From an uncultured Bacteroidaceae bacterium (GTDB lineage Bacteria; Bacteroidota; Bacteroidia; Bacteroidales; DYOH01), in assembly GCA_964421365.1 (NCBI GenBank), contig CAYQXT010000001.1, forward strand, positions 1 through 36,613: a stretch of 36,613 bases of DNA. The letters are read 5' to 3'. The notes beneath the pieces are model-generated. The model ran no database searches. It was not told the DNA's origin and was given only the letters and a program-made list of their open reading frames with translations. The position numbers and the translations under genes are program-made. This document shows, piece by piece, positions 1,435 to 36,585 of this stretch (the first letter of the stretch is position 1; each line of letters opens with the position of its first letter).

Positions 1435-1707
1435 TTATTTAACGGTATTCTGTAAGCTTTAACCATTTACAATTAACAATTATATTGAGCCAGATAAGTC
1501 ATTTTAAGTAGTGAGACCTATTAAATCGACCCTTCTATTATTCGTAATCTAATGATTATAAGGTGAGAGCAAAATTTACAATTTACAATTTACAATTACT
1601 TAGTACATTTTAGTGAAAATTTTCCCAAAAAAAATACATTTTTTTATTTTTCAACTTTGTTTATTAATCAAAAAAAGCGTATTTTTAAAAAAACAAAAAT
1701 AGTTATT

Positions 1708-3297: not shown

Positions 3298-3362
3298 TGA
3301 CGAATTACTAATGCGGTTCTACAATCCTGAATCCCAATTTCTGATTCCTAAATCCTAAATCC
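3288..3362. repeat. AT-rich motif mosaic (family R3: ATTCGTAAT / TACAAT / GAATCAGG-type words)
   Basis: The reverse complement resembles 20738-20808. Related words occur at 13758-13836 and 1537-1600. Confidence 0.5.
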
Positions 3363-6300
3363 CATGACTAGTACATCGTCAATTTGGTCTAATTCTCCTT
3401 TCCATTCCTCAAAGAAATCATCAAGAATCTGATGTTGTTCTATCATTGGTTTCTGATGAATTTCCTTTAGTTTAAGTCTGAAAGGTTTGTATTTCAACTT
3501 TTTGGCTTTTGGCCCTCCAAATTGGTCGGCATAACCATCGGAAAAGAGGTAAAAAACATCCCCTTTTTTCATCTCAATAGTAGTTGTGCTAAAGGAATCC
3601 ATAATATCGAATATAGCAATGGGCATTTTGTCTGGCTTATAGATTAAATCCTCTCCCTCACGGAATACATAAAGTGGATTATTGGCTCCTGAATATTCTA
3701 AAATATTATTTTCTATATCTATGGTACAAAGCGATATGTCCATACCATCCTTAGATTGGTCTTCTTCTTCTTTGTGTGATTGATGTAGCGCTTTTATTAC
3801 ATTATCTCTTAATGCATTAAGAATTTCGTGAGGCTTGTGGATTTCTTTTTCGTTTACAATTTTGTTTAAAAAACTTATTCCTAACATACTCATAAAAGCT
3901 CCTGGAACGCCATGACCAGTACAGTCGGCAGCTACAACAATCATTTTATTTTTGGCATGGCCTATCCAGTAAAAATCACCACTAACAATGTCTTTGGGTT
4001 TAAAAAGCACAAAAGAGTCGGCAAGTGTCCCATTGGAAAAGTTCTCGCCTGGTAATGCAGCTTTTTGAATTCGTTTGGCATATTTAATACTATCGGTGAT
4101 TTCTTTTTGCTGCAAGGCTATTTCGTCTCTTTGTATTTCGATTTCTGTCAGATGTTCCTGAATTTCTTCTTTTTGTTTTACGACTTCGGCCGTACGTTCT
4201 TTTACTAATTTTTCAAGGATTATTTTTTGTCGTTCGATTCTTTTTATCCGTGCTCTAACAAAGAAATAAACCAAAAGAATGAGTAGAATAATTCCGCTGT
4301 ATTGGGCAATCTTTGTTTGCCACCACGCCGGGTGGATATTCAATTGTATTTTCTGTCCGGTTTTATTCCAAATACCATCATTATTAGAGCCAATAACCTG
4401 AAAAGTGTAGTTTCCGGGGGGAAGATTTGTATAATTGGCAAATCTGCGGTATTTTACTTTATTCCAGCCTTTATCATAACCAATTAGTCGATAAGAATAT
4501 TGATTTTTTTCTGAAAAAATATAATTCAGCGCCACAAAATCAAATGAAACAAAGTTTTGATACCATTTTAGATCGATTCTTTTTTTAACAGCAATGCTAG
4601 AATCCAATTCATAGTCTGTGTTGAAAACCTGAAAACGGGTAATCAGTACATCGGGGATATTGGGATTATCCTTTATGTCTTTGGCATAAAAAGCATTCAA
4701 GCCGTTAACGCCACCAAAAAGTAATTTGCCATCATGGGCTTTAAAGTAGGAGCCTACCAGAAATTCATTACTTTGAAGGCCGTCATTTACATCATAATTG
4801 CGTGTTGTGCCATTTTTGGGGTTGAATTTGCAGAGTCCGCCATTGGTACTCAACCATAAGTATCCTTGCGCATCTTCAATTATCCCCATTATCACGTTAT
4901 TTGCGAGACCATCTTTTTCTGTAAATTTTGTAAAACTTTCATCATTGGGGTTGAATCTATTCAAACCTGCCCCTTTCGTACCTATCCAAATTCGGCCTTT
5001 TGAATCCTGGAAGATAGAGTAAATCCGGTCTTCACCAATAGAAGCTGGATTGTCTTCATTGTTTTCGAAATGCTTGAATTCTTCGGACTTTCCATCCCAA
5101 AGATCGATACCGCCTCCATAAGTTCCAATTAAATAATTCCCGTTTTTATTCTGCATGATACACGTTACATAGCTACTACTCAATGATTGCGGTTTATTCG
5201 CAATATGTTGAAAGGAAGTAAAAGTTTGATTTTCATAATTAAAGCGATTTATTCCTCCGCCAAATGTGGCTATCCAGAGTTGTTTTTGCCTGTCTTCAAA
5301 AATTTTATAAATTTTATCGTTACTGATAGATTTCGGATTATTTGCTTCATGTATGAAATGTTTAAAAGTTCCTTTTTTTCTGTTCATCAAATCTAATCCA
5401 CCGCCATCTGTACCAATCCAAAAATTGCCACGGCTATCTTCAAATATTGCTCTTACATGATTGTACGATAGTGAATTATCTTTTCCGAACTTATGCTTAA
5501 AATGGGTAAAAGTATTATTATTCTCGTTCCACCGATTTAATCCGCCATCCACTGTTCCAATCCAAAAAACCCCTTGTGCATCCTGATAAATAGAACGAAT
5601 CTGACTCGTGGATAGAGAATTAGAATCATAAGGATTATGCCGGAAAACATCCATTCCCTGAGTCGTTTTATTCCATTTATTGATTCCTCCTAAAGAAGTT
5701 CCTATCCAAAGTACGCCTGTTTTGTCTTGATAGAGTGATTTTACATTGTCCACACTCAGGCTGAAAGCAAAGGTTGGGTCGTGAGTGTAACTTATATATT
5801 TTTTTGTTTTAGGGTTGTATAGGCTGAGGCCTCTGTTTTCTGTCCCCACCCACAGCAAATTCTCTTTGTCTATTAAGATAGAGCTTAAGTTATTGCTCCT
5901 CAGCGAATTTTTTATTTTTGTATTGACCACAAGATGCTCAATAATGTCCAATTTATTGTTTAATAATTTAACATGAAAAAGTCCGGTATTTGTAGTTATC
6001 CATAGTTTATTGTCAGAGTCGGTAACAACATCTTTTATTTCATTAGACTTGCTGTCTTTCGTAAGCGTGAAATTTTTAAAATTGCCGTTTTTTTTATTAA
6101 AGTGGCTAAGTCCTTTGTTCGTTGCTACCCATATTTCTGATTTCCAATTGAATATCTTGTGGATTTGCTCGCTCGAAATACTACTTTTATTGGCAGGATT
6201 GGGATGAAATTCGAGTACCATCTTTGTTCCTCTATTCAGGAAAAATAGCCCCTTTTGAGTACCTATCCAGATGTTTTTTTCCGCATCCTCGGTAATGGAT

Positions 6301-6710
6301 TTTACGTTCAACATCAGTGGGGAAACATTTCGGGAACGCAGATAACTTACGTTATAAAATTTATCTTTTGTGCGGTTATAAATCGAAATACCCCGATTTT
6401 GAGTTCCAATCCAGATTAAACCTTTGCTGTCTTCAAAAAGAATGTTTATAGAGTTTCCGGCGATAGAATACGGATTATCCGGTTGGTGATGGTAAACACT
6501 TACACTATATCCATCAAATTTATTTAATCCATCGATGGTGCCAAACCACATAAAGCCCTGACTGTCTTGTAAAATTGTATTTACTGTGCTTTGCGAAAGA
6601 CCTTGCTCTATAGATAAATGTTCAAATTTTATACTGTTATTTTGGGCATATACCCTATTAAATACTCCCAGTATGGCGATTAAAGAAATAAGAAGGAATT
6701 TTTTTTTCAT
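3348..6710 (-). CDS. Periplasmic double-propeller/Y_Y_Y sensor fused to a cytoplasmic PP2C/SpoIIE-type phosphatase
   Basis: Signal peptide MKKKFLLISLIAILGVFNRVYAQ. Many two-component-regulator propeller repeats (WIGT/WIAT/WVGT..GL..F). TM helix IAQYSGIILLILLVYFFV followed by a coiled coil. SpoIIE motifs SGDFYW, DCTGHGVPGAF and FSDGYADQFGG. Confidence 0.85.
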   Translation of the reverse strand: MKKKFLLISLIAILGVFNRVYAQNNSIKFEHLSIEQGLSQSTVNTILQDSQGFMWFGTIDGLNKFDGYSVSVYHHQPDNPYSIAGNSINILFEDSKGLIWIGTQNRGISIYNRTKDKFYNVSYLRSRNVSPLMLNVKSITEDAEKNIWIGTQKGLFFLNRGTKMVLEFHPNPANKSSISSEQIHKIFNWKSEIWVATNKGLSHFNKKNGNFKNFTLTKDSKSNEIKDVVTDSDNKLWITTNTGLFHVKLLNNKLDIIEHLVVNTKIKNSLRSNNLSSILIDKENLLWVGTENRGLSLYNPKTKKYISYTHDPTFAFSLSVDNVKSLYQDKTGVLWIGTSLGGINKWNKTTQGMDVFRHNPYDSNSLSTSQIRSIYQDAQGVFWIGTVDGGLNRWNENNNTFTHFKHKFGKDNSLSYNHVRAIFEDSRGNFWIGTDGGGLDLMNRKKGTFKHFIHEANNPKSISNDKIYKIFEDRQKQLWIATFGGGINRFNYENQTFTSFQHIANKPQSLSSSYVTCIMQNKNGNYLIGTYGGGIDLWDGKSEEFKHFENNEDNPASIGEDRIYSIFQDSKGRIWIGTKGAGLNRFNPNDESFTKFTEKDGLANNVIMGIIEDAQGYLWLSTNGGLCKFNPKNGTTRNYDVNDGLQSNEFLVGSYFKAHDGKLLFGGVNGLNAFYAKDIKDNPNIPDVLITRFQVFNTDYELDSSIAVKKRIDLKWYQNFVSFDFVALNYIFSEKNQYSYRLIGYDKGWNKVKYRRFANYTNLPPGNYTFQVIGSNNDGIWNKTGQKIQLNIHPAWWQTKIAQYSGIILLILLVYFFVRARIKRIERQKIILEKLVKERTAEVVKQKEEIQEHLTEIEIQRDEIALQQKEITDSIKYAKRIQKAALPGENFSNGTLADSFVLFKPKDIVSGDFYWIGHAKNKMIVVAADCTGHGVPGAFMSMLGISFLNKIVNEKEIHKPHEILNALRDNVIKALHQSHKEEEDQSKDGMDISLCTIDIENNILEYSGANNPLYVFREGEDLIYKPDKMPIAIFDIMDSFSTTTIEMKKGDVFYLFSDGYADQFGGPKAKKLKYKPFRLKLKEIHQKPMIEQHQILDDFFEEWKGELDQIDDVLVMGFRI

Positions 6711-6961: not shown

Positions 6962-7082
6962 GCATTAAGACAAAAAACGGTCGGACGGATAGTTTTATTT
7001 AATTATAGAAAACAAACAACTTATTTACAATTAGTTAATGAATTGGTTAGACCAATTTTATGTAAAATTATTAATTAAGCCT
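6962..7082 (-). mobile_element. Degenerate copy of the 129-bp MITE family (copy F)
   Basis: aaaaaacggtcggacggatagttttattt...caattagttaatgaa aligns with copy C (31831-31959). It supplies the fake N-terminus (MNWLDQFYVKLLIK) of track ORF 7038-7721. Confidence 0.6.
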
Positions 7083-7765
7083 TCTTTGTTGGAAATTTAC
7101 GTAAAAGACACAGGAATTGGAATAAAACAAGAAAGTCAAAAAATAATATTTGAACGATTTTTGCAGGAAGAAAAAAGTTTAGAACGAAATGTTGGAGGAC
7201 TTGGATTAGGACTGTCAATAGCCAAAGAAAACGCAGAGCTACTTGGTAGCAAAATTATGCTTCAGTTAGAAAAAGGAAAGGGTTCTACATTTTTTGTTAC
7301 AATTCCTTATAAACCTGTAAATTCTAAAATTGAAAATGGTAATTCAATACCTAAAAAAATATCACCAAAAGAGGATATATACATCATTCTTATCGTTGAG
7401 GACGAAGAAGTAAATTATTTGTATCAGGGGACATTACTCGAAGATCTTGGCCTTAATTTGAAAACTTTACAGGCAAAACAAGAAAAAGAAGCTCTTGATA
7501 TGTGCAAAAAAAATACAGAAATTGACTTCGTTTTAATGGATTTGAAAATGCCGATAATGAATGGTTTTGAAGCAACAAAGTTAATCAAGGAATTTCGCCC
7601 AAATTTGCCAATAGTTGTCCAAACAGCCTATTCGACAGGAGGGAGAGAGAACAAGCAATTTCGGCAGGTAGTGATGATTTTATTTCAAAACCCATATGCG
7701 AAAAAACTTTTATCAGAATAATTAATAAATACTTGATAGCAAAAAAAGATAACTCGAATATATAA
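7080..7765 (+). pseudogene. 3' part of a hybrid sensor histidine kinase (HATPase G1/G2 boxes plus receiver), frameshifted
   Basis: EIYVKDTGIGI (G1), FERF and GGLGLGLSI (G2), then a receiver domain ILIVEDEE...VLMDLKMP...VVQTAYS. Near 7638-7645 the frame shifts. The shifted frame continues EREQAISAGSDDFISKPICEKTF...* to 7765. Confidence 0.75.
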
Positions 7766-10845: not shown

Positions 10846-13215
10846 CTATTTTTTTTTGATTATAAATTCTACTCTTCGGTTTTTTGCCTGTGGTTTTTCA
10901 GAGTGAATCAATAATTGCGTTTCACCATATCCTTTATACGAAAGTCTTGTATCCGATATTCCTTTTTTTATAAGATAATTTTGGACTGCTTTGGCGCGCT
11001 TCTCCGAAAGTTTGAGATTGAAATTTTTATCGCCAACAGCATCAGTGTGGCCGTCAATTTCAATTTTTATGCCTGGATTTTGCTCCAAAAAGTGGAGTAA
11101 ATGCTCTAATTCAGGAAAGGAAGCGGGCAGAAGTCCGGCTTTATTGAAAGAAAAATAAATATGTTTGAGTATGAATTTTTCTGTTGTGGATATGGGAACA
11201 GGCTTAAAATAAATCTTTTGAATTTTATTTTTTTGTATAGAAGTATCAATTGCCGGTACAAAATAATCGGGTGTATCTAAATAGAAAGTATATTTACCAG
11301 CAGGAATATAAAATTTAAAATCTACTTGTTGAGGCACAAATTCACCTATTTTATTTCGATTTTTATCTGTCCAGTAAATTTTTGTTTTGCCATTAAAATC
11401 TACCGGAATAGGTAGTCGTCCGCTGATCAAAACTACCGGATTGGGTTTTACGTGTTTGGGCAAAGTTGCAGTATAAATATCAAAATTTCCGTTTTCGCGG
11501 CGGGCAAAATAGGCGAGCTTACCATCGGTAGTGATTTTAAATCCCCAATCATCGCCAATGGTGTTTATTTCTTTGCCAAGGCTAACCGGTTGAGACCAAT
11601 AAACCCACGAAGTATCGTAGAGGCGCGTACTTTTAAATACTTCCAATCCGCCCAAGCCACCATGTCCGTTGCTGCTGAAATAGAGCGTTTTCATGTCGGG
11701 ATGCAAAAAGGGGCTAAGTTCGGCGTAAGGCGTATTTATAGTGCTGTTTAAGTGGATGATAGAGTCCCATTTTCCGTTCACAGATTTTAGGGCAAGATAT
11801 AAATCGGTATTTCCCCACAAATTACCATGAAACAGCCGGTTTCGTTTGTGAAACAGACCCTTATTTTCTAATCGGTCAGAAGAGAAAACCAGCACAGACC
11901 CATCGGCAGCGAGGGAGGCCTCACCCTCGAAATAGGAACTGGAAATTTTGGGGATTTCTTTGGGCGTATTCCAGCCATTTTTACCCCTTTGTGAATAGAC
12001 CAAATCACCTCCATTATTGCCGGAAAACAGTATAATGGTGCTTTCATCGGCTGAGACACTTTCGGGTGCTTCGTTGCCATAAGTGGTGTTAATCCCTTGC
12101 AAACGTTTTACTTGTTGCCATTTCCCGTGGTGCATTTTTGAATATAAGATGTCTTCGCCGCCGAGGTTTTCCAGTCGTCCTAATGAGCAGAAATACAGCG
12201 TTTGTCCATCGGCAGAAATTACGGGACTATATTCATTCTTTTTGGTGTTGATTAGCGTGCTTAATTTTTGAATTTTTACATCCTGCGGAAAATGCTTTAT
12301 TACGCGGGCTGTTTCCATCAATTCAGGCATATCTTTCAGATAATTAACATAGTGTGCCAAGGTGTCGAAAGCACTGAGATAATGCTTCTGCCGGAGTGCC
12401 GGCTCCATTAATTTTTGTAGCACTACTATCCGTAAGTCTGTTTTAGCTGTTTTTAAATAGTTTACATAATCGGTATAGAACTCAGGATTATAGGGTTTTT
12501 GTAAACGTAGCTCTTTGGCTTTTTCTGCCCACAGCATATCTTTTTTTAAGGTATCGATAAAAGGGAAACGTACAAATTTTTGGCGAAAAAGTTCTAAACT
12601 TTCTAAATCGCCTTCTTTTTGAAATTGATGGTATATAGCCCACCATGCTGAATCGTAGGTTGCTTTAGCTCGTTTGTGAAAAGAGGAATTGGGATATTTT
12701 TCCATAAATTCGGCATAATTCTCAAAAGTTTTGCTTTTAATGAGCTGCAAATAGGTCAAACTGTCCCGCATATAAGATATTTTATTTGCGTTTTTGTTTT
12801 GAGGATAACTTTTAATATATATATCGGCTAGTTCGGTATCTTTCTCGTTCAAAATTTGTCGACTCAAGGCAGATAAAAAATCGGACTTCTCTTTTTTATA
12901 AATTTCTGTATCACAGCCAAATTTTTTATTCCATTCTCGGAGGTCATTTTCATCGGCCAAAAGAAATTTTGTATCTAATTTTTTGGATAGGTATAAGATG
13001 AATTGTTGCTGTGTTTTTTTGTTTAATTTCAGCGCGCTTCGGAATTTAAGGTAATCGGCTGGGATTTTTGATTTATCAGTTGATTTTATAGAACTTGATA
13101 ACTGGTAGGCTGTTTTGTAATCTCCTTTATCAAAACTTTTAAAGGCTTTTTTTAGGTTTTGGGCGGAAGTATTGAAGACCACAAACAAAAAAAGTAGTGA
13201 AAAAATTTTATTCAT
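10846..13215 (-). CDS. OmpA-family protein with TPR-like N-terminus and PD40/TolB-like propeller repeats
   Basis: Signal peptide present. Repeated S.DG..L.FSS motifs. C-terminal OmpA motif GHTDAVGDKNFNLKLSEKRAKAV. Confidence 0.85.
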   Translation of the reverse strand: MNKIFSLLFLFVVFNTSAQNLKKAFKSFDKGDYKTAYQLSSSIKSTDKSKIPADYLKFRSALKLNKKTQQQFILYLSKKLDTKFLLADENDLREWNKKFGCDTEIYKKEKSDFLSALSRQILNEKDTELADIYIKSYPQNKNANKISYMRDSLTYLQLIKSKTFENYAEFMEKYPNSSFHKRAKATYDSAWWAIYHQFQKEGDLESLELFRQKFVRFPFIDTLKKDMLWAEKAKELRLQKPYNPEFYTDYVNYLKTAKTDLRIVVLQKLMEPALRQKHYLSAFDTLAHYVNYLKDMPELMETARVIKHFPQDVKIQKLSTLINTKKNEYSPVISADGQTLYFCSLGRLENLGGEDILYSKMHHGKWQQVKRLQGINTTYGNEAPESVSADESTIILFSGNNGGDLVYSQRGKNGWNTPKEIPKISSSYFEGEASLAADGSVLVFSSDRLENKGLFHKRNRLFHGNLWGNTDLYLALKSVNGKWDSIIHLNSTINTPYAELSPFLHPDMKTLYFSSNGHGGLGGLEVFKSTRLYDTSWVYWSQPVSLGKEINTIGDDWGFKITTDGKLAYFARRENGNFDIYTATLPKHVKPNPVVLISGRLPIPVDFNGKTKIYWTDKNRNKIGEFVPQQVDFKFYIPAGKYTFYLDTPDYFVPAIDTSIQKNKIQKIYFKPVPISTTEKFILKHIYFSFNKAGLLPASFPELEHLLHFLEQNPGIKIEIDGHTDAVGDKNFNLKLSEKRAKAVQNYLIKKGISDTRLSYKGYGETQLLIHSEKPQAKNRRVEFIIKKK

Positions 13216-13935: not shown

Positions 13936-14118
13936 GTGTTGGTGAATAACAAGTACACGAAATTAACAAATGAAAAAAATGAAGTTTTAAAGTTTAGAAA
14001 TATAGTTGAAGTTTTGGATTATTTCTACACAAAAGGCTGGGAACATGAAGATCAGGTTAGTTTTATGTTGTCTGAAGCGGGTAATGCCTATTTTTACCTT
14101 TTAGTGAAAAGAAACTAA
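13936..14118 (+). CDS. Possible truncated paralog of 13269-13619
   Basis: FRNIVEVLDYFYTKGWEHEDQV resembles FKSRSDFFNYLYKQGWKYVEAV. It has only a GTG start, no signal peptide and no in-frame ATG back to the stop at 13888. Confidence 0.3.
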   Translation: MLVNNKYTKLTNEKNEVLKFRNIVEVLDYFYTKGWEHEDQVSFMLSEAGNAYFYLLVKRN

Positions 14119-15353
14119 GGAACGATACTTGTTTTTGGCAAAATAAGAATGAAATTAGCATCTATTTGATTATATAGCATTGTATTGCCAAAAATCAGTA
14201 GTTGTGGATCAGTGTCATTAATCCAAAAAGCATCGGTAATCTCAGCTTCGTATCTGCTTCCAAAAGAAAAGTCGATTTGGCTATTTTCGCCGGAGAAAAC
14301 CCGTATCTGGTTATCGTAAGAAGTACCCAGAATTATTTTTGTTTGTTCGCTTGAAGTTTGATTCTTAACAAAAATAATATTTTTTTGGGCATTTATTTCA
14401 TTCAAACTAATGGTTCTGATTATTTTTTTAGCATCCAAATCATATTCCTGAATTTGAGAGCTTTGATTTATTATGTTGTAAGAAATAGGGAAAACGATAG
14501 TGGCGTTTAGGAAATTTGCTTTTCGAACAAAAATATTTGGCCTATAAAATATAGGGTATGACTTATTTATTTTTTCTGTTAGCGAATTAAAAAGGAGTAA
14601 GCTAAAAGACAGAGGGCTATTGTTGTCTGGTTGATAGGGAAAATTTAGATAAAGGCTTGATCCATTTTTAATAAGAAAGCAATAATCTTTTAGCAAGCCA
14701 TAAAAATAATAGGTGCTGAATAAGTTTTTACTCTCTATTGTACTAAATGGCTCTGCATTGTATGAAAATGAATCTAAAATGGAGAGTTGTTGAAAATCAG
14801 TACTTGCTTTTATGAGAAATATTTTGGTATTCAATGTTTTATCAAGAGTGTCATTGGTTAGTAATAAGTAGCCCGCATCGTAGTCTATTACGGATAGGGG
14901 AACTTGATTATCAAACCCGGCCAGTATATGTTCGACCGTATATTTTCCGTCTTTATCAAAATGATAGACTACTATTTTTTTATCGCTTCGCAGTGCCAAA
15001 AAAACTGAACTATTATCTTTATTAATTTGTAAATTAGAAGGAAACGCTATTTTGTCGGCTGGTACAAATACATTATCGTACGAAACAGAGTCTTGAGAAA
15101 TAAATTTAATCCGTTTTTGTTTTAAGGTACCGAAATCGTATTTTGTTTTTTGCTCAATACCTAATAATGAAAAAGTATTTGAGCCTAATGCTTGTACCGC
15201 AAAAGCCTGATTAACTCCGGGAGTGATGTTTTTATAATAAGTGATGGGAGCAAAGTTCGCCTTTTTCTGCTCGCAGGAGAATAGAGCGAATAATCCGATT
15301 ATAAAAAAGAAAGTAAATAAGCTTTTCTGAGTATGATATTGTTTGTTTTTCAT
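14115..15353 (-). CDS. Hypothetical lipoprotein
   Basis: Lipobox LFALFSC after a hydrophobic leader. The start is moved to MKNKQY because the upstream 27 nt are the conserved block. Confidence 0.7.
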   Translation of the reverse strand: MKNKQYHTQKSLFTFFFIIGLFALFSCEQKKANFAPITYYKNITPGVNQAFAVQALGSNTFSLLGIEQKTKYDFGTLKQKRIKFISQDSVSYDNVFVPADKIAFPSNLQINKDNSSVFLALRSDKKIVVYHFDKDGKYTVEHILAGFDNQVPLSVIDYDAGYLLLTNDTLDKTLNTKIFLIKASTDFQQLSILDSFSYNAEPFSTIESKNLFSTYYFYGLLKDYCFLIKNGSSLYLNFPYQPDNNSPLSFSLLLFNSLTEKINKSYPIFYRPNIFVRKANFLNATIVFPISYNIINQSSQIQEYDLDAKKIIRTISLNEINAQKNIIFVKNQTSSEQTKIILGTSYDNQIRVFSGENSQIDFSFGSRYEAEITDAFWINDTDPQLLIFGNTMLYNQIDANFILILPKTSIVP

Positions 15354-15380
15354 TCGTTTATATTTTAAGATTAACCACAT
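15351..15380 (-). promoter_or_regulatory. Conserved start-proximal block ATGTGGTTAATCTTAAAATATAAACGAATG (copy 2 of 3)
   Basis: 25 of 30 positions are identical to the folC copy, with identical spacing to the start codon. Confidence 0.5.
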
Positions 15381-15562
15381 ATACAACACATTAGAAGACA
15401 TGAATTTTTGGGGTTAAATAGATATTTTGAGTGCATATAGTGAAAATTTTTCTACAATTTTTGTTTCACTTTTTGCTGATGCTCGTAGGTGAGCAATCGC
15501 CCATACCACGAGGTTGCCGCTTTTCATTTTTTACTTAAATTGTGGTGTCCATACACTCTATA

Positions 15563-16675
15563 TTATTTTAATTTATTCAGTGTTTGTTTGGCTTGTTTCT
15601 TTACTATATTATTGAAAATTTTGTATTTAAGAAAATAGGAAAAACTGAGCTCAAATTTTAGATAATTTAGGCTTATTGCATCCATATTTTGGTAGTAATC
15701 AAATATAAGTTCATCTCCTTGACCATAAAAAAATATATTTGAAGCGGTAATCTGTTGTAGATCGTGATTTAACTCGGTTTTGAAACTCAAAATTGCCTGA
15801 GGAATAATACGGTAAGAAAATGATAATTGGGTAGTTAGACCGGGGGTAAAATGTTCAAAATAGTTATAGGTATCTATTTTCCCCGAAGCATTTTGCTCTT
15901 GGATGGATGAAGCATAACTACTCAGTAAAACAGAGTAGTAGATCCCGACACCTATATTCATATTAAATTTATTTATGTGATTATAAAAATGATTAGACGA
16001 AAAATCATAATTTATCAGCAATAAATTCTGCAAATAATTCATAGAGAGGTTCATCATGCTACTACTAATTCCCTGAATATAATTTTTCCGAATAAAATTA
16101 AGGGCAAAACGCTCTATTCCGGTTGAGAAAAAGATTTTAGGCCGTACGTAAAAGTTAGCTATTAGTCCATAAATGGTAGTGGGATTGCTCGCTTTATTCG
16201 AGCGGATAAATAAAGTATTTTCTTTGGTGATACTATTTATTCCAAAATGGGTCTTTATCATGGCAAAATTAAGTCCGGTAATTAATTCAAAACTTAGTCT
16301 TGGGCTAATCAAAGATTGCTCTGCTGTTTGTCTTATTTCAGGGAATTCATCGCTTTCTAAATGGATGAAAGGACTTAATACTAGCATCTTTTGAGTATAA
16401 TATTTAGATAGAATAGCATTTTTTTTCTGGGCAAAAATCCGGGCTTTATACAAAAAAATATCACTTTTGATTTGTTTCGAACTTCTAATCTGAACGGCAG
16501 TGTCTAAAAAATCTTTGGCTATGTTTAATTGTCCTGTTTTATAACTCGCTTTTGCACTGTCTAAAAAATTTAGCGTAGTGAGTTTTTGTGAATATACATT
16601 TATGAAACTAAATAGAATAAGCCCGAAAAAAAATAAATAGCGAATGGGTTTATTATGTGCTTTGCTTTTAATCAT
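15563..16675 (-). CDS. Putative outer-membrane beta-barrel protein with short helical (TPR-like) N-terminal region
   Basis: Signal peptide FFFGLILFSFINVYSQ. The C-terminal two-thirds shows an alternating hydrophobic/aromatic strand pattern. No named family recognised. Confidence 0.55.
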   Translation of the reverse strand: MIKSKAHNKPIRYLFFFGLILFSFINVYSQKLTTLNFLDSAKASYKTGQLNIAKDFLDTAVQIRSSKQIKSDIFLYKARIFAQKKNAILSKYYTQKMLVLSPFIHLESDEFPEIRQTAEQSLISPRLSFELITGLNFAMIKTHFGINSITKENTLFIRSNKASNPTTIYGLIANFYVRPKIFFSTGIERFALNFIRKNYIQGISSSMMNLSMNYLQNLLLINYDFSSNHFYNHINKFNMNIGVGIYYSVLLSSYASSIQEQNASGKIDTYNYFEHFTPGLTTQLSFSYRIIPQAILSFKTELNHDLQQITASNIFFYGQGDELIFDYYQNMDAISLNYLKFELSFSYFLKYKIFNNIVKKQAKQTLNKLK

Positions 16676-16748
16676 CGTTTAAAAAGTCATAAATTATTGA
16701 TTATTAAATCTCTTTGAATACGGATTTTCCATTCTGTCATAAAAAAGT

Positions 16749-19700
16749 TCAGAAAATGAATTTAGTTTTACGCTGAATATCGCCTCGTCTATAGTAATAC
16801 CACCATTTAAGGTTTTGCTTTTTGTCTAATTTTTCTTTTTTAAGTTTTAAATATAAAAATTTTTTATCAATGGGTAAATATTCGATAGCTTCATTATTCG
16901 AATATAATATGAAATTATCATCGGGGGAAAAACTCAGACTGTTAATATATTTTGTGTTTACATCTGATATGAGAATGGGAATTAATTTTTGTATTTTTTG
17001 AGGATTTAAATTATTGATATTCCATATCAAAATAGTCCCATCAAACGAACCGCTTGCTAACCACTTATGATTGTGACTTATGGCAATACATGAAATCATT
17101 CCGCCATGTTTTTGCGGAAATTTAATTACCTCCTTTTTATCTACATAGAGGATATCGCCTCTACCCGAATTTATAAATAATAACTTTGGATTTTCATTAT
17201 AGGCTATTATATTTGGCTGAAAATTGGAGCTATTCCAGTCATAAGTATTATTAAAGCGCTTTAGAATTTTTAATTCCAGATTTTTTCCTTCGAGAAAGCG
17301 TCTTCCGAAAATAGACCGGTTGCCGAGTCGTTTGGTATCAATAATCGTAGAATTACCCAGATTATCCGTGGTTTGTATTAATCCGGCTGTCGGAAGCTTG
17401 GTGATTTTACTTACACCATTAGGAAAATAGGAAGTGGAGTTTAATAGTTTGCCATTGACCATTTTAAAAATTTCGCCGCCGGATGTATTTAGCCAAACTT
17501 CTTTGTTTACTTGTATTATCGAATAAATCAAATCATTAGTGTGTGTGTATAAACTTTGTATGGAATCAAATTCTACGTTTTCCTTTTTAATTTTTAGTTT
17601 TAAAATATCCAGTCTGCCTGCGGTCGTAGCTGTGTAAATTAAGCTGTCGGTAGTTAGGATGGCTTTTGCAGAGCGCTCTGTTAAATGGGTATCATAGAGT
17701 TCCGAATAGGTGTTTTGCATGCAATGAAGTAGAATAGGCATATAGGGATGTTGCAGTCCATATTTTTGCGATAAACTGTCGGCTACATAATTGAGTTCAA
17801 GAGCTGTGGTTGATAGAAATATTTTTAATCTTTTATTTTTCGTAGATAAAGCCTCATTAGCAAAGTTCTTTGCATTAAAAGCATACAAATAATATTGTGC
17901 CTTTTCTTCGGCAGCCTGCGCCTTTTCTTTTTCTTCGTTGGCGTAATATTCATTGCGCTTGGCTTGTGCTGCAAGAAATAGGGCGCGCTGACGTTGTATA
18001 TCTGCTTTAAATCTGGACGAATCAGCTAATCTACGGGCAAAGATGGCTTCTTGCTTTTGTTGTAAGGCTTCTTTTTTTTGTTCTTCGGCTATATGTTTTT
18101 GAATCTCAGCTAATTTGCGTTGGTGTTGAGCCGAATCGGCTTGTGAGCGGGCTAATAATTCCATTTTTTTGGCCTTTATACTCTCATTCTTAGCAAGTAT
18201 GGTTTGTCTCTTAGCTTTTTGTGATTGTTGATAAGCAAAAAAGCCAAAAATAGTAGCAAATGCTCCTAAAATAAGAGAAAAAATAAGCAAAAGTTTAACT
18301 CGTTTCTGTTGCTTTTCTTTTTGTAACAAGGCGGCCTGATATTCACTACTTCTATTGATATACTCGTGATGTAGAGAAGTGGGTTTAGGTGTTTTCTCTT
18401 CTTCTTCGGCTTTTTTTAGCCAGTTTTGGGCTTCTTCTAATTCCTGGCCTCGTAGTAGGTAGTCATTATTTTTGTTCTGATTTTCCCAAATTTTTGCCGA
18501 ACGGGCAAAGTAATTATGTAAACGATTGTGTTCTTTGTCGGTTTCGAGAATACGAATCAAATCGGCTGAGACACTGTCAATATCCTTGGAGTCAAAATTA
18601 ATTTTTTGTATATTTTCCGAGAGGATTATTTCTTGAGCGGCTGAATCTATTTGGACAGCAATCATTCTTATACCTCTTTTTTTCGCTATTTCATAAGTTT
18701 TTGTACTTTTTTTATCGCTAAAAAAAGATTTACTTAGAATAAAAACAAAATTATTACTCTTATTGATTTGATTTTCAGTTTCTTCGATAAAATTAGATTC
18801 ATCAAAGGTTTGGTTCTCATTAAAATAAGTTGTTTTCCCGGATATTTGTAATTTATCGTTAATCTCACGGGTAAAATCTGTATCTTCTTCTGCAAAAGCT
18901 ATATAAATCTCTATATCCAGAGTGCCGGAAATGATTTGACTATTTTCTATATACTCATCCTGCCATTTGTTGCTCTTATAATGCTGATTTTTACTTAATT
19001 TAGACCAAGCTAATGCATTTTCCAGTTCTTTTGTACTAAGGAGCATACTGTTTAGTTTTCCGAATTTAATCCAACGCAGCGCTCTGAATAAATATAATTT
19101 ATGGAGATAAAAATAATACTTGTTCTGAAGCATTTGGGCTTCCAGTAAGTCGAGTGAAGTTTCGAATGGTTTTTTTTCTTGCCTTTGGGCTGTATTTTCT
19201 TGTTCTATTTCGGAAGTATCTGTTCTTTTTAAAAAATCTATATACTGTAAACTCCTTATTTTTATCGGAAGATCATTGTCTTCTGTGGTTGTTATAAGTA
19301 GCGGAATAAGCCTTTTCTTATATCTGATGGCAATATCTAATTCTTGCAGTGCATCTTTTGAATTTACAGAATATGGGGAGATTAGAAATAGTAAACAGTC
19401 TGCCCCCGCAATACCTTGTTCTATGGCCTCTTTAAATTTTGCTCCTCTGGGTATATCATGGGTGTCACTCCACGAGCTAATTCCTCTAAGATTTAGACTA
19501 TTGCGTAATAGCTCTTTAGCTTCGATATCTTCTCGTGCATATGCCAAAAAGCAGTCGGTCATGTTATTTTCCGAATTTTTTCTTGCCGTAATTATAAATT
19601 CTGCTTGGAGGGCAATAGGGCCACAGGGTGCTTGAAGTAAATTCCCTTGATTATCTTTAAATTGTTTAGTCAGTAACCAGTTAATTGCTTTTTTGCGTTG

Positions 19701-20657
19701 TGTGCCTCTGAGTAGATATTTTGTATTGCGTTTGTTTTGTACCCAACTTAAGGCTTGGTTAAGTAAAATGGTGTGCGCATGTACATATTTCTTGTGTTGC
19801 TTTCCAAGTTCAATTAAATTATTGATAGCCGAGTTAATATCATCTATGTCTTCCCAATCTTCCGGATTTTTTTCCAAATCAAGCTTCTGGCGGGCATAAA
19901 TCCAATTTCGTTTTCGTATTTCAGGATGAATTTTAGATTCTAAATCGCCGGGTTCTATATGCAATATAGGAATAATTCTTTTGTTGTATTTCTTTGCAAG
20001 TTCTATTTCTTTATAGCAATAGACTGAATTTACTGAATGAGGCGAAATGATAAAAATAAAATTATCGGCTTTTTTTATCCCTTCATCTATTTGTTCTTGA
20101 AAATCAACGCCTAAAGGAATATCATTCATGTCGAACCATACTTTGTATCCTTGAGAGCTAAGCTGATAGAACAATTTACGGGCAAAAACCAGACTATGAC
20201 GACGCCCGTAGGAAATGAAAATATCCCTGAATTCTGAACTTTCTTTTTTGGTAAGACTGACCGTTTCGGTGGAGGAATTTAAAAATTTCACTACTTCATT
20301 CAGATTTTTTTTCCAGATCCCACCATTGGAAAGTATCAATTTCCCAAGTTTATTAAGCGCTATTAATTGATCGGCAGAAAAACGTTTTCCTTGGTCTTCT
20401 TCTAAATAACAAAATAGGGTTTTATCCGCCTTTTTAAAAGAATCATCGCTAACTTCGGCAATGGAATAGAATCCCTCAAGCAATGGAGTTATGACATAAA
20501 GAGAGAAATCCGCACTTTCTCTTTCTGATATTTCCTTTAGCCGGGCTTCCTCATTCCAATCATCAACTACTGGGTTAAAGTAATTAACTTTTAAATGCGG
20601 AATAATTTCATCTCGCCATGTCGAGCCATTCACTGTTCCGCCTAAAAAAACTTTCAT
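16749..20657 (-). CDS. Multi-TIR transmembrane protein: NDT-like head, 3 TIR modules, TM helix, coiled coil and WD40-type propeller
   Basis: No signal peptide. aa 1-125: MKVFLGGTVNGSTWRDEI...ITPLLEGFYSIAEV. TIR1 aa ~145-235: DIFISYGRR...SPHSVNSVYCYKEIELA. TIR2 aa ~368-455: DCFLAYARED...SPYSVNSKDALQELDIA. TIR3 aa ~582-670: EIYIAFAEED...KSTKTYEIA. TM aa ~787-809: LLLIFSLILGAFATIFGFFAY. A K/Q/A/E-rich coiled coil follows. WD repeat HGGMISCIAISHNHKWLASGSFDGTILIWNI. Confidence 0.8.
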   Translation of the reverse strand: MKVFLGGTVNGSTWRDEIIPHLKVNYFNPVVDDWNEEARLKEISERESADFSLYVITPLLEGFYSIAEVSDDSFKKADKTLFCYLEEDQGKRFSADQLIALNKLGKLILSNGGIWKKNLNEVVKFLNSSTETVSLTKKESSEFRDIFISYGRRHSLVFARKLFYQLSSQGYKVWFDMNDIPLGVDFQEQIDEGIKKADNFIFIISPHSVNSVYCYKEIELAKKYNKRIIPILHIEPGDLESKIHPEIRKRNWIYARQKLDLEKNPEDWEDIDDINSAINNLIELGKQHKKYVHAHTILLNQALSWVQNKRNTKYLLRGTQRKKAINWLLTKQFKDNQGNLLQAPCGPIALQAEFIITARKNSENNMTDCFLAYAREDIEAKELLRNSLNLRGISSWSDTHDIPRGAKFKEAIEQGIAGADCLLFLISPYSVNSKDALQELDIAIRYKKRLIPLLITTTEDNDLPIKIRSLQYIDFLKRTDTSEIEQENTAQRQEKKPFETSLDLLEAQMLQNKYYFYLHKLYLFRALRWIKFGKLNSMLLSTKELENALAWSKLSKNQHYKSNKWQDEYIENSQIISGTLDIEIYIAFAEEDTDFTREINDKLQISGKTTYFNENQTFDESNFIEETENQINKSNNFVFILSKSFFSDKKSTKTYEIAKKRGIRMIAVQIDSAAQEIILSENIQKINFDSKDIDSVSADLIRILETDKEHNRLHNYFARSAKIWENQNKNNDYLLRGQELEEAQNWLKKAEEEEKTPKPTSLHHEYINRSSEYQAALLQKEKQQKRVKLLLIFSLILGAFATIFGFFAYQQSQKAKRQTILAKNESIKAKKMELLARSQADSAQHQRKLAEIQKHIAEEQKKEALQQKQEAIFARRLADSSRFKADIQRQRALFLAAQAKRNEYYANEEKEKAQAAEEKAQYYLYAFNAKNFANEALSTKNKRLKIFLSTTALELNYVADSLSQKYGLQHPYMPILLHCMQNTYSELYDTHLTERSAKAILTTDSLIYTATTAGRLDILKLKIKKENVEFDSIQSLYTHTNDLIYSIIQVNKEVWLNTSGGEIFKMVNGKLLNSTSYFPNGVSKITKLPTAGLIQTTDNLGNSTIIDTKRLGNRSIFGRRFLEGKNLELKILKRFNNTYDWNSSNFQPNIIAYNENPKLLFINSGRGDILYVDKKEVIKFPQKHGGMISCIAISHNHKWLASGSFDGTILIWNINNLNPQKIQKLIPILISDVNTKYINSLSFSPDDNFILYSNNEAIEYLPIDKKFLYLKLKKEKLDKKQNLKWWYYYRRGDIQRKTKFIF

Positions 20658-20737
20658 AGGGATTCATCTTGTTATTCTCTTGCAAGAAACAACATTTTTT
20701 TCAAATTGTCAATATAATTTGAATATAAATTAAATTG

Positions 20738-20808
20738 GAATTTGAAAGTCGGGAATCAGGAATCCGAATTGTAAAACGGCATTTGTAATTAATAATTCGT
20801 AATTAGTT
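20738..20808. repeat. AT-rich motif mosaic R3, copy b
   Basis: gggaatcaggaatccgaattgtaaaacggcatttgtaattaataattcgtaattag resembles the reverse complement of 3288-3362. Confidence 0.5.
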
Positions 20809-20851
20809 GGGGCGCTGAGTGGGCTTTTCGTTTATACTCCTCCTTGTCTCA

Positions 20852-20917
20852 GCCCGCAAAACTACGACAAAAAAAGAGTTCCATTCCTACACTCTTTTTT
20901 GCCGTGTTTTGCAGGGC
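20852..20917. other. Long imperfect hairpin inside a GC-rich island (20811-20975)
   Basis: gcccgcaaaactacgacaaaaaaagagt / actcttttttgccgtgttttgcagggc gives about 27 bp of pairing with two small bulges around an 11-nt loop. Confidence 0.5.
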
Positions 20918-20977
20918 TTCGTTTGCGGCGGGTATCGCTTCAATCTCTTGCGTAACCACACTTTTCAGCAAGAGCTT

Positions 20978-21084
20978 TAATTATGCCGTGCCGGTATCGC
21001 ATTTTGTATGCTTATTTTTGTTTATTTCAGAACATCCAGAAGTTCTCAGAAAATATTTACAAATTTTAGGAGCGATTGAGTATA
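20978..21084 (-). repeat. 107-nt element family R2, copy 3
   Basis: The reverse complement aligns along its whole length with 26080-26187. Confidence 0.7.
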
Positions 21085-21210
21085 AAAAGGAAGACTTCGG
21101 TGATGTTAGAGGATAGTTATAAATGAGTATATGATGGTTATAGATGGTTATAAAATTGAGAAATCGTAATATCAATTATATTACTACGATATCTCAATCA
21201 TATTAAGCTA

Positions 21211-21804
21211 TTATCGCCTTGAGCGAATATCTTCCTGTGCTCTGTATAAGGCTTTTGAATCTTCTGCTTCGGTATAATCATTAAAAGGTCCTACGGCTAG
21301 CATTTCTTGAACTAAGCCCTCGTTAAGTGCGTCATAAAATTCCTGAACAGTTCCGCTCGCAACCCTTGCTGCTGTTGCCTCTAATTTATAACCGGCTCTT
21401 TTCTTCTTTACTTTTAAATAATACCAATGTACTTGATCGTCTTTAATTGCTAATAATACATTAGTGTTTTGGTTTCTTCTGGATAACTGACTGTAAATTT
21501 TCTGAGCATTTTTAGCCGTTTGTTTTTCCCAGTATGGACCTACCGCTAAACGCAGGCTTGTTCTGTTTCCCCAGAGTGCCTTCTTAAATTTTTCGGTAGA
21601 GCCAGAATAGAATCCTCCACTTGGACGTAATTTGTATTCATTCATTTTGGTTTCTTTATTTTTTTCCATGCTTATGGTTATAAAGAACCAATTTAATTTT
21701 TCCGGTTTTTGTAATATTTCATCTGTCAGCTCTTGAGCTAAAGAAACTTGACCGAAAAATGTGATAAACATTAATAGTAAAATAATTTTTGGCGTAGCTT
21801 TCAT
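21211..21804 (-). CDS. Secreted protein with two SPOR-like repeats
   Basis: Signal peptide present. Internal duplication ending LRLAVGPYWEKQTAKNAQKIYSQL and MLAVGPFNDYTEAEDSKALYRAQ, similar to the SPOR consensus (rV.vGpf.s...A). Confidence 0.5.
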   Translation of the reverse strand: MKATPKIILLLMFITFFGQVSLAQELTDEILQKPEKLNWFFITISMEKNKETKMNEYKLRPSGGFYSGSTEKFKKALWGNRTSLRLAVGPYWEKQTAKNAQKIYSQLSRRNQNTNVLLAIKDDQVHWYYLKVKKKRAGYKLEATAARVASGTVQEFYDALNEGLVQEMLAVGPFNDYTEAEDSKALYRAQEDIRSRR

Positions 21805-21847
21805 ATTTCTGAGTTCTTTTTCTTATGTAATTCAATAAAATTGCACA

Positions 21848-21873
21848 AAAATCACACCATTCAAAGTGATTTT
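21848..21873 (-). terminator. Hairpin 3' of the 21947 gene
   Basis: aaaatcac-accattcaaa-gtgatttt. On the minus-strand RNA the stem is followed by UUUU. Confidence 0.4.
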
Positions 21874-26429: not shown

Positions 26430-27140
26430 ATGGATACTTTACTAAATTGGGCTTTTCTTATTTTGTTTCCTTTATTTTTTATCCTTTTTATTGCTTCTAT
26501 TATATTTCTTATTGTCCGTCATTTCAAAACAAAATCAAAACTACAGAATTGGGCAGAAGAACAGGGGTGGAGCTATTTTCTTAAATACCAAAACCAAGAA
26601 GAATTAAGCCAGTTTTACACAATGGTCAAAAAATCGGTTGTAAAAACAAGTGGAAATACGACTGTGAAAATTGAAAATATTATGAATGGCAAATATAAAG
26701 GCGATGAATTTTGGTTTGCCTTTTATCGTGGTTTCTCTGGTTATAGTGGAAGCAATAATACCCGAAAATCTACAGCTTTCAATATTTTTATTATTCCTGT
26801 GGAAGGACTAAATCTGGAATTAACGCTGATTTACCGTAGCAAAATGATTAAATTTTTACACATTGATAAAATGGCTAAGCTTTTAGGGATGCCCCTTTTT
26901 GTGCCCGATGAAAATGAATTAGACTGGTTGCTGCTTACAGATGTAGAAAAATTTAAGTCATTGAAGTTAAGTAATTACAAACTAGACTCACTTAAAGAAG
27001 TACTTAGTGATGCGCACAGCATATTGTTAAGTTCCGGTTTTCTGGTATATGCTATTGAATATAATATGACTTTAAAGAAAGATCGTATCGCGCATTATTT
27101 GGATAAATTAGAACAGGTTCAGAAAATTTTCACCAAATAA
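26430..27140 (+). CDS. Single-pass membrane protein of unknown function (paralog 1)
   Basis: N-terminal TM; 236 aa. Shares WAEEQGWSYF, FWFAFYRG, LIYRSKMIKFL, LDWLLLTD and a C-terminal KIFTK motif with the next gene. Confidence 0.65.
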   Translation: MDTLLNWAFLILFPLFFILFIASIIFLIVRHFKTKSKLQNWAEEQGWSYFLKYQNQEELSQFYTMVKKSVVKTSGNTTVKIENIMNGKYKGDEFWFAFYRGFSGYSGSNNTRKSTAFNIFIIPVEGLNLELTLIYRSKMIKFLHIDKMAKLLGMPLFVPDENELDWLLLTDVEKFKSLKLSNYKLDSLKEVLSDAHSILLSSGFLVYAIEYNMTLKKDRIAHYLDKLEQVQKIFTK

Positions 27141-27528: not shown

Positions 27529-28239
27529 ATGGAAAATTCAAGTAGTATTCGAATTGTTATTTTTGTTCTCTTCTTTGTTATTTTTATAGTCATCTCTTTA
27601 ATTTACGCTTTTATTAAATCCAAAAAAACGAAGCAAGAGTTGTCGCTATGGGCCAAAGAAAAAAAGTGGCAGTATTTTCAAAAATATGAAAATCAGCCGC
27701 AGTTAGAGTCGTTTAATTCTATTGGCGTGCAAGCTGTAAAGGAGTTTAACAGAGATAAGGAGGTGAAAATTACCAATATTTTAGTGGGGAAAGTTAAGAA
27801 TTTTGATTTTTGGTTTGCCTTTTATAAAGGTAGAGCAGGTGCTACTGCCAGTAACAACCGTAGGGAGAATACTACCTATAATATTTTTAGTACTCCTATG
27901 CCAACTCCTGATGGTGAATTGATACTTTTATATAGAAGTAAGCTCATAAAGTTGTTGCAAACTGAAAAATTACATAATCAGTATGGAGTTTCGCTTACTA
28001 TTCCTCAAAATTTGGATTTAAACTGGTTATTGCTAAGTGATATAGAGGGGTTAAATAACCTGAATTTAGATAGTTTCAAGCTAAAGATGCTTAAACAATG
28101 TATTTCTGAGGCAAATAGTATTATTTTGGGAAATGGACAACTTACTTACATCGTACAGCATAATCAAACTTTCGGAAAGAATAAAATTGAATATTATCTG
28201 GGTAATCTGGAAAAGCTAAGAAAAATATTCTCAAAATAA
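27529..28239 (+). CDS. Single-pass membrane protein of unknown function (paralog 2)
   Basis: Also 236 aa and collinear with 26430-27140 (WAKEKKWQYF, FWFAFYKG, LLYRSKLIKLL, LNWLLLSD, KIFSK). Confidence 0.65.
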   Translation: MENSSSIRIVIFVLFFVIFIVISLIYAFIKSKKTKQELSLWAKEKKWQYFQKYENQPQLESFNSIGVQAVKEFNRDKEVKITNILVGKVKNFDFWFAFYKGRAGATASNNRRENTTYNIFSTPMPTPDGELILLYRSKLIKLLQTEKLHNQYGVSLTIPQNLDLNWLLLSDIEGLNNLNLDSFKLKMLKQCISEANSIILGNGQLTYIVQHNQTFGKNKIEYYLGNLEKLRKIFSK

Positions 28240-36509: not shown

Positions 36510-36585
36510 TCTCCGCATAATTTACTGCAAATATAATATTTTTTCTCCGCAAATAATCTTGCGAATAAAGTGGCTTTTCTCCGCA
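36509..36585 (-). promoter_or_regulatory. Three phased direct repeats TTGCGGAGAA upstream of and overlapping the fic start
   Basis: Plus-strand ttctccgca occurs at 36509-36517, 36543-36551 and 36577-36585, an exact 34-bp spacing. Confidence 0.5.

Follow-up and report, generated by a model that had tools for sequence, protein, structure and literature searches.

The window analyzed here, a stretch of 36,613 nucleotides from an uncultured Bacteroidaceae bacterium (GenBank assembly GCA_964421365.1, contig CAYQXT010000001.1), contains a gene for a protein of 1302 amino acids (aa) that we call the receptor. The protein combines a nucleoside 2-deoxyribosyltransferase-like (NDT-like) domain, three TIR domains that are each followed by a helical module, a single transmembrane (TM) helix, a stalk and a WD40 propeller. 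We consider it reasonably probable, though by no means assured, that it is an envelope-sensing receptor of the inner membrane that switches on a cytoplasmic TIR activity, which would be NAD+-cleaving or signal-making. The receptor gene is followed by two genes, g2 and g3, for a putative outer-membrane β-barrel and a lipoprotein, and the same three-gene order is observed at other loci.

Domain architecture of the receptor

The open reading frame (ORF) is a real gene. A homology search with the receptor returned 981 homologs at E ≤ 1e-5, the best of which reach E = 0, and this resemblance is far beyond chance. The start of the protein, MKVFLGGT, is invariant among the homologs, the closest of which is 53% identical over the full length of the receptor. 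An identical protein is on record from the same NCBI contig, and the closest locus in GTDB, in a metagenome-assembled genome of Acetofilamentum sp. (Bacteroidales), shows 56% identity. Public records label the homologs merely as "TIR domain-containing protein" or "WD40 repeat protein".

The protein was modeled with AlphaFold2 (AF2) from homolog alignments in two overlapping parts. The model of aa 1–786 (predicted local distance difference test score, pLDDT, 86.3; predicted template modeling score, pTM, 0.74) shows a strand/helix N-terminal domain and then a unit of one TIR and one four-helix module that is repeated three times. The model of aa 780–1302 (pLDDT 84.5) shows an unbroken helix at aa ~781–938, two short helices and a β-propeller. 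The features of the gene are as follows.

16749–20657, minus strand: receptor gene, 1302-aa ORF; NDT-like domain, three units of TIR plus helical module, TM helix, stalk, WD40 propeller
20268–20657, minus strand: NDT-like domain (PF15891, Nuc_deoxyri_tr2), aa 1–130
19872–20231, minus strand: TIR1, aa 143–262; best TIR_2 stretch 146–258; Glu217 codon 20007–20009
19572–19838, minus strand: helical module 1, aa 274–362, four helices (AF2; alignment of the three units)
19218–19562, minus strand: TIR2, aa 366–480; ThsB_TIR match 370–458; Glu439 codon 19341–19343
18930–19169, minus strand: helical module 2, aa 497–576 (AF2; unit alignment)
18588–18914, minus strand: TIR3, degenerate, aa 582–690; Thr654 codon 18696–18698 in the catalytic column
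18303–18581, minus strand: helical module 3, aa 693–785 (AF2)
18237–18293, minus strand: single TM helix, aa 789–807; Kyte-Doolittle mean 2.52
17844–18230, minus strand: predicted periplasmic stalk helix, aa 810–938, rich in K/Q/A/E
16788–17834, minus strand: two connecting helices (aa 942–990) and WD40-type β-propeller (aa ~995–1290), predicted to be extracytoplasmic

The receptor belongs to the TIR superfamily. Three of its stretches match Pfam TIR_2 (E 1.7e-59; 200 bits, cut-off 28), and the Pfam profiles TIR (59 bits, cut-off 21.3) and ThsB_TIR (43.6 bits, cut-off 21.2) matched as well. AF2 puts the first strands of the three domains at aa 144, 367 and 584. A Foldseek search with the model of aa 1–786 returned AbTir (7uxu; target-normalized TM-score, TMt, 0.80), SARM1, the SPARTA TIR-APAZ protein and Hydra TRR-2, at TMt values of 0.72–0.80, together with the non-catalytic TIRs of MyD88 and TLR. 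The flavodoxin-like TIR fold found by both methods bears out the three TIR-like modules that an earlier reading of this DNA from its letters alone (the sequence-only reading) had proposed.

The same reading held that all three TIRs keep the glutamate of TIR NADases. We examined this point in a family alignment of 50 sequences of the N-terminal module, which was used for all counts in the catalytic column. In an alignment of TIR1 to the TIR of SARM1 (E 4e-6), the residues K-E217-I fall on the SARM1 motif 'HKEI', the Glu of which we take to be the catalytic E642, and E217 is invariant (50/50). TIR2 aligns on the 'LKEL' motif of the SPARTA TIR-APAZ protein, and its E439 is kept in 47 of the 50 homologs. 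By these sequence criteria TIR1 and TIR2 are of the catalytic type and look catalytically competent, and here the earlier claim stands. For TIR3 it does not. Its catalytic column holds Glu in 44 of the 50 homologs, Ile in P0002, Gln in P0005 and Thr654 in the receptor, and both the family alignment and the internal alignment of the three units place the Glu of its 'TYEIA' motif, E656, two positions past that column. TIR3 also has AFAE for SYSR, Tyr for Trp and Asn for Asp in the W-x-D motif, and has lost the Gly of the BB-loop; its match in the PDB is weak (E 0.02). Because Thr654 occupies the catalytic column and these other motifs are gone, TIR3 is probably an inactive, structural copy beside the membrane. 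The helical modules that follow the TIRs share a motif, H..A..W....LL.G..L..A..W, which recurs after each TIR in the internal unit alignment. The last helix of module 3 (aa 761–785 in the N-terminal AF2 model) continues straight into the TM helix, which in the C-terminal model is part of one helix at aa ~781–938.

The first 130 residues, which the sequence-only reading had left unassigned, were placed as an NDT-like domain by Pfam PF15891. The match in the receptor is marginal (31.1 bits against a cut-off of 30, aa 2–58) and homologs score more clearly (P0075, 46 bits; others, 36–37 bits). AF2 gives the domain an alternating strand/helix pattern, and 33 of its residues are invariant, including G6, G7, T8, W14, R15, E42, E45, R46 and E68. 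The last of these (codon 20454–20456) lies within a 'YSIAEV' motif and, by the motif of the NDT family, may be the equivalent of the NDT nucleophile. No meaningful relative of the domain was found in a PDB sequence/profile search.

We next consider the membrane topology. Under a hydropathy criterion of a Kyte-Doolittle mean above 1.2 over 19 aa, residues 789–807 are the sole segment of the receptor above threshold, and the N-terminus has none. This result agrees with the sequence-only reading, which had described a 1302-aa ORF without a signal peptide and with exactly one strongly hydrophobic helix at aa ~787–809. In ~110 of 120 homologs the TIR module is succeeded by one TM helix, which in nearly all complete homologs lies ~90 aa past the last TIR. 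We predict that the receptor is a bitopic (type II) membrane protein with its N-terminus in the cytoplasm and its C-terminus outside. This orientation is supported indirectly by the presence of a folded N-terminus of 786 aa without a signal peptide, by the envelope nature of the conserved partner proteins described below and by the positive-inside bias of the family: among the 89 homologs with a clear helix, Lys and Arg are more abundant on the N-terminal flank in 71 and on the C-terminal flank in 4. It is also supported by paralogs in which a dCache_2 or CHASE2 domain comes with matching extra hydrophobic segments; P0075 has TM helices at 985–1003 and 1270–1288 around a dCache_2 domain at 1015–1264, and in P0080 the TM helix is followed by CHASE2 and then by further hydrophobic segments.

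The stalk lies within the one continuous AF2 helix. Its alanines are spaced at exactly seven residues across 16 consecutive heptads, 16 of the 26 being in one heptad position, and the A-x6-A pattern is also present in the family consensus. The coiled-coil-like stretch of about 130 aa noted earlier is thereby recovered, and if straight it would be ~17–19 nm long. Besides the heptad alanines the stalk is rich in Lys, Gln, Glu and Arg; it may be an alanine-zipper coiled coil or a single stable helix serving as a spacer. For the propeller, which had been described as having a textbook WD repeat, Pfam WD40 (PF00400) matched one repeat at aa 1182–1213 (43 bits, cut-off 27), with partial matches to propeller families over aa 1144–1280; the repeat profile misses the remaining blades, which have diverged too far. 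The AF2 propeller has a pLDDT of 85–95, and Foldseek aligned it to the WD40 propellers of TLE1, WDR55 and PkwA over ~320 columns (E 1e-12 to 1e-10).

Conservation differs strongly among these parts. Mean identity to orthologs is highest in TIR1 (74%), which with the NDT-like domain (62%) forms the best-conserved part of the receptor; it declines through TIR2 (50%) and the helical modules (~40%) to TIR3 (30%) and the similarly divergent propeller (27%), the fastest-evolving part. This gradient fits a protein in which the enzymatic core is under constraint, the TIR nearest the membrane is structural and the sensor evolves fast.

Partner genes and the wider family

Two genes follow the receptor gene on the same strand, g2 beginning 74 bp past it and g3 ~160 bp further.

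15563–16675, minus strand: g2, 370 aa; signal peptide, tetratricopeptide repeat (TPR)-like N-terminal region, outer-membrane β-barrel
14115–15401, minus strand: g3, lipoprotein, 428 aa as listed; invariant lipobox Cys43

We placed g2 as a barrel because its orthologs match OMP_b-brl_2: 6 of 11 members of the g2 family do so in Pfam, with a best E of 9e-13. The g2 of the window itself had no direct Pfam or PADLOC match, and a PDB profile search gave it a weak TPR match (IFIT1) only. The true start of g3 is probably Met17, at nucleotide 15353. No match to g3 was found in Pfam, the PDB or PADLOC and no relative of known fold was detectable; a word-indexed search for its family yielded three proteins, and a metagenome scan with a closer alignment of the family yielded none. 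A scan for sigma-70 promoters and terminators gave no terminator-like site between the receptor gene, g2 and g3; the scan as a whole performed at the level of shuffled sequence, and its sigma-70 model does not cover the promoters of Bacteroidota.

The genomic context of g2 and g3 was taken from a profile search of 84 fetched loci, in which g2 is the most recurrent neighbor family of all. Nine other distinct loci have a receptor C-terminus that aligns with this propeller; in 8 of them both genes lie downstream, and L027 is the exception. They follow directly in seven loci (L001, L005, L006, L026, L030, L041 and L047; in L041 tblastn aligned the distal third of the C-terminal region only). The loci that carry them span Bacteroidales and Cytophagales and include receptor forms with and without the NDT-like domain. 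In one metagenomic ortholog locus, L003 (7416–10526; and L004), a gene for an MmeI-type restriction-modification protein of 1036 aa stands between the receptor gene and g2/g3, and a dynamin-like gene comes after the module. In L047 the three-gene module is followed by a gene (16377–21848) for an 1824-aa protein with leucine-rich repeats (LRR), immunoglobulin-like domains and a β-helix.

The family to which the receptor belongs is large. With the 786-aa N-terminal fragment as single query, at least 463 representatives of clusters at 50% identity matched at E ≤ 1e-30, and a scan of one genome per GTDB species gave 387 loci. These come from Bacteroidales, Cytophagales, filamentous cyanobacteria, Gemmatimonadota and others, with an enrichment in filamentous or gliding taxa. 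Every relative surveyed has a common core of three TIRs, ~90 aa of helices and one TM helix. The NDT-like domain is present at the N-terminus of some relatives, all of them Bacteroidota-type forms. After the TM helix the C-termini are swapped among multi-repeat WD40, LRR (as in P0057), dCache_2, CHASE2, FGE-sulfatase/lectin-like and Laminin_G_3 domains. The spread is patchy, genomes carry several paralogs each and copies stand in tandem at some loci, and for these reasons the receptor is not a core housekeeping gene; universal conservation in such a role, which the sequence-only reading had named as a result that would speak against it, is not what the distribution among GTDB species shows. 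Some members are giant: the genes at L026 6293–13795, L027 5699–13612 and L083 9965–15322 encode 8, 9 and 6 TIRs, respectively, before a single TM helix, which suggests duplication of the three-TIR unit.

Other subfamilies have other neighbors. Cyanobacterial genes with three TIRs, a TM helix and WD40 repeats have upstream a gene for an LSDAT_prok SLOG protein (7 loci) and one for a patatin phospholipase (6 loci), and further relatives adjoin a DUF4231/SLATT_3 gene (7 loci, directly downstream in 4). By analogy, the pairing of SLOG with a lipase or pore suggests a Thoeris-like logic of signal-reader and effector in these relatives, and the SLOG, patatin and SLATT neighbors speak for a small molecule as the product of the TIR module. 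In the neighborhoods examined, no TIR adaptor was found as a gene of its own. A separate LRR protein of 675 aa is encoded after the short-tailed Bacteroidales receptors of L009, L023 (13016–15043) and L024, and the gene after the receptor in L039 (13684–15045) is Porin_O_P-like. An inositol-monophosphatase-family gene occupies the next position in L025, L028, L029, L031 and L032, whose receptors are short (~835 aa) forms with three TIRs and a TM helix from Bernardetia/Flexibacter-type Cytophagales; this neighbor could be a nucleotide- or phosphate-ester-processing partner.

Within the window, a gene for a PD40 (TolB-like) and OmpA protein of 789 aa (10846–13215, minus strand) lies on the same strand as g3 and ~900 bp downstream of it. 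We considered it as a fourth member of the module and rejected it; it has homologs near relatives of the receptor solely in L012 and L046. Tandem paralogs of 236 aa each (26430–27140 and 27529–28239, plus strand) are 43% identical; each has a membrane anchor at its N-terminus and matches no Pfam family. A protein of 1120 aa with Reg_prop repeats, Y_Y_Y and a SpoIIE-type phosphatase is encoded at 3348–6710 (minus strand), and the adjoining short ORF at 7038–7721 (plus strand), with the end of a HATPase_c domain and a receiver domain, is possibly a truncated hybrid kinase. Toward the contig ends are a DUF4172 and Fic/DOC gene (35385–36518, minus strand) and a PIN_4 and PhoH gene (1657–3036, plus strand). 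Scans of the window for tRNA and Rfam families found none.

Proposed mechanism and alternative readings

We infer the stimulus, the activation of the TIRs and the output as follows. The periplasmic propeller would work with the co-encoded outer-membrane barrel g2 and lipoprotein g3, or with a ligand that they present, and the rigid stalk would hold it far out in the periplasm. An event at the envelope or outer membrane, such as phage docking, damage or binding of a ligand, may alter the packing of the stalk or the oligomeric state of the receptor. This change would travel down the continuous helix (aa 761–938) to TIR3, the degenerate copy, and the helical module nearest the membrane, whereby TIR1 and TIR2 could assemble an active site. 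The TIRs would then cleave NAD+, with NAD+ depletion, an ADP-ribose-derived signal, or both as the result. In the cyanobacterial relatives the SLOG, patatin or SLATT proteins encoded alongside would read such a signal; the NDT-like domain fused to the receptor may have this downstream task in the present Bacteroidota clade and process the signal. A function of this kind most likely falls in the conflict or danger-response class, by which filamentous or gliding bacteria would abort an infection or enter programmed death. More tentatively, the family may be a diversifying bacterial repertoire of outside-in pattern-recognition receptors, in each of which one TM helix would join a variable sensor to a triplet of catalytic TIRs, and a functional counterpart of the Toll-like receptors (TLRs). 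As part of the same tentative proposal, such receptors might detect threats to the envelope, including phage docking or an outer-membrane breach reported by the barrel and the lipoprotein, before or independently of genome entry, and might respond through nucleotide signals from the TIRs or a collapse of NAD+.

Several observations weigh against the reading as an envelope receptor with a TIR output. The window has no defence island, no SLOG, SIR2 or SLATT effector and no PADLOC system; it has no Macro gene either, and PADLOC gives matches at the level of the TIR domain only. The genes that flank the module are housekeeping genes of an ordinary Bacteroidota chromosome (type IX secretion system, T9SS, substrates; coaE; a Mur ligase), and no relatives were found in a scan of viral contigs. 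In the receptor itself the Pfam match behind the NDT-like assignment is marginal, and the PDB search gave the domain no sequence relative. Finally, most known WD40 propellers are cytoplasmic, and the receptor's own TM flanks are charge-neutral, with 5 Lys/Arg on one side and 5 on the other.

Some of these points bear on a receptor of the same architecture and topology that is not immune in function. Such a protein would sense the envelope or the environment (surface contact, cell-cell cues in filaments, the status of the outer membrane) and, through its TIR and NDT-like domains, would make or consume a nucleotide second messenger in ordinary physiological regulation, without cell death. The housekeeping context without a defence island, seen both in the window and in L001, is what would be expected of it; the dCache and CHASE2 variants carry the sensors of ordinary signal-transduction proteins, filamentous or gliding taxa are over-represented in the family, and some relatives adjoin an inositol-monophosphatase-family gene and not a killer effector. 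However, the patatin and SLATT partners of other relatives are typical suicide effectors, a restriction-modification gene is inserted within the module of L003, and the fast evolution of the propeller together with the expansion of paralogs with variable ectodomains resembles repertoires of immune receptors. All characterized bacterial systems with catalytic TIRs are, to our knowledge, defence systems or toxins. We regard a non-immune sensor as a real but minor likelihood. A purely structural role for the TIRs is very unlikely. Here they would act as protein-protein scaffolds, as in TLR and MyD88, that recruit partners on clustering and do not catalyze a reaction; three TIRs per chain could form an assembly platform, TIR3 has been retained despite the loss of its catalytic Glu and other motifs, and MyD88 and TLR are among the Foldseek matches. 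Against a scaffold speak the invariant catalytic-type Glu of TIR1 and the nearly invariant one of TIR2, the conservation of the TIR1 motifs at the level of an enzyme, the neighborhoods free of separate TIR adaptor genes, and the SLOG partners, which imply a small-molecule product.

The remaining alternatives concern the placement of the protein. If the topology were wrong, the hydrophobic helix would be a mere tether or buried, or the propeller would be cytoplasmic, and the receptor would be a membrane-associated sensor akin to the STAND-WD40 proteins. The symmetric charges at its TM helix would permit this, and WD40 repeats with a preceding helical region also occur in soluble bacterial STAND/NACHT-WD40 proteins. 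However, a single membrane-spanning helix cannot keep both large domains on one side, and the long folded N-terminus without a signal peptide, the positive-inside bias of the family, the dCache/CHASE2 variants with their extra hydrophobic segments, and the conserved outer-membrane barrel and lipoprotein all point to an external propeller. We consider a wrong topology quite unlikely. The sequence-only reading had put the propeller outside and the TIRs inside, and its prediction agrees with the charge bias and the sensor variants of the family; the neutral flanks of the receptor itself are uninformative. Bacterial TIR NADase toxins exist, and T9SS substrates are encoded in the window, so that one might think of a delivered NADase toxin, whether a polymorphic toxin or a secretion-system effector, instead of a receptor. 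This idea is barely credible: the protein has no signal peptide and, in Pfam, neither a Por_Secre_tail nor a toxin-delivery domain; its TIRs are N-terminal and predicted to be cytoplasmic; no immunity gene was identified nearby; and the combination of TM helix and sensor is conserved.

If the envelope-receptor reading is true, bacteria have TIR enzymes wired to extracytoplasmic sensors, such receptors form paralog repertoires with swapped ectodomains, and in one subfamily or more the receptor gene has become part of a three-gene module together with its outer-membrane partners. This would raise the questions of whether bacteria can launch NAD+-based responses from the cell surface, what a chain of three TIRs with one degenerate copy contributes to activation and what the NDT-like domain does to TIR products. 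Residues 1–786 make up a compact, conserved and confidently modeled cytoplasmic fragment for biochemistry.

Comparison with known systems

Full-text searches of the literature turned up analogous ideas but nothing that describes this architecture, in agreement with the sequence-only reading, which knew of no described system with this layout. A 2024 paper (PMC11350192) states that TLR-like membrane and LRR features seem to be absent from bacterial TIR systems. Proteins that join a caspase to CHASE2, and others with a "constant component + variable C-terminus", have been discussed for multicellular bacteria (PMC3501461, PMC8195603). The new element here would be a TIR effector fused to a transmembrane receptor, a proposal whose support is wholly computational. 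The Thoeris, TIR-STING, TIR-SAVED, SPARTA and retron-TIR systems are not known to sense cues from beyond the cytoplasm.

The receptor shares with Thoeris ThsB a TIR_2/ThsB_TIR fold and a catalytic-type Glu, and its cyanobacterial relatives stand beside SLOG and patatin genes or a SLATT-type membrane protein. For this reason the sharp contrast with Thoeris that had been drawn from the sequence is overstated. However, proteins of the ThsB type are soluble, have a single TIR and are activated in the cytoplasm, whereas the receptor has three TIRs, an NDT-like domain, a TM helix and a predicted extracytoplasmic sensor. There is no ThsA-like gene in the window and no full-length Thoeris match; the ThcB4 model scores 74 bits against a cut-off of 220 and covers aa 111–232 only. 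The likeness to the NADases SARM1 and AbTir lies in TIR1, which aligns through the catalytic motif of SARM1, and in the Foldseek scores given above. Unlike these enzymes, the receptor has no ARM/SAM or coiled-coil N-terminal regulators, and its regulation is predicted to act across the membrane.

In overall plan the receptor resembles the bitopic one-component receptors, such as Ser/Thr kinases with outside propellers or PASTA domains and cyclases with dCache or CHASE2, and also the caspase-TM-CHASE2 proteins. In all of these a cytoplasmic enzyme is joined through a TM helix to an extracytoplasmic sensor, and one set of sensor domains is exchanged on an enzymatic module that stays constant. 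The receptor differs in its output, a TIR triplet with or without the NDT-like domain in place of a kinase, cyclase or caspase, and in the specific outer-membrane partner genes of its subfamily.

The comparison with animal TLRs made by the sequence-only reading is apt at the level of layout. Both are single-pass proteins with a cytoplasmic TIR and a sensor built of repeats, which in the receptor is predicted to lie outside, and the receptor family includes LRR members (P0057; in L023 the LRR gene is a separate one) as well as sets of paralogs that differ in their ectodomains. In contrast to TLRs, which are type I proteins, the receptor has its N-terminus inside and no signal peptide, so that the predicted polarity is opposite. 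A TLR has one adaptor-type TIR at its C-terminus, whereas the receptor has three at its N-terminus with the catalytic-type Glu in TIR1 and TIR2; its sensor is WD40 where that of TLRs is LRR, and no MyD88-like adaptors are found here. The likeness is one of layout only, and nothing that we tested indicates common descent of the whole architecture. By their defining features the receptor is not Thoeris, SPARTA or a TLR.

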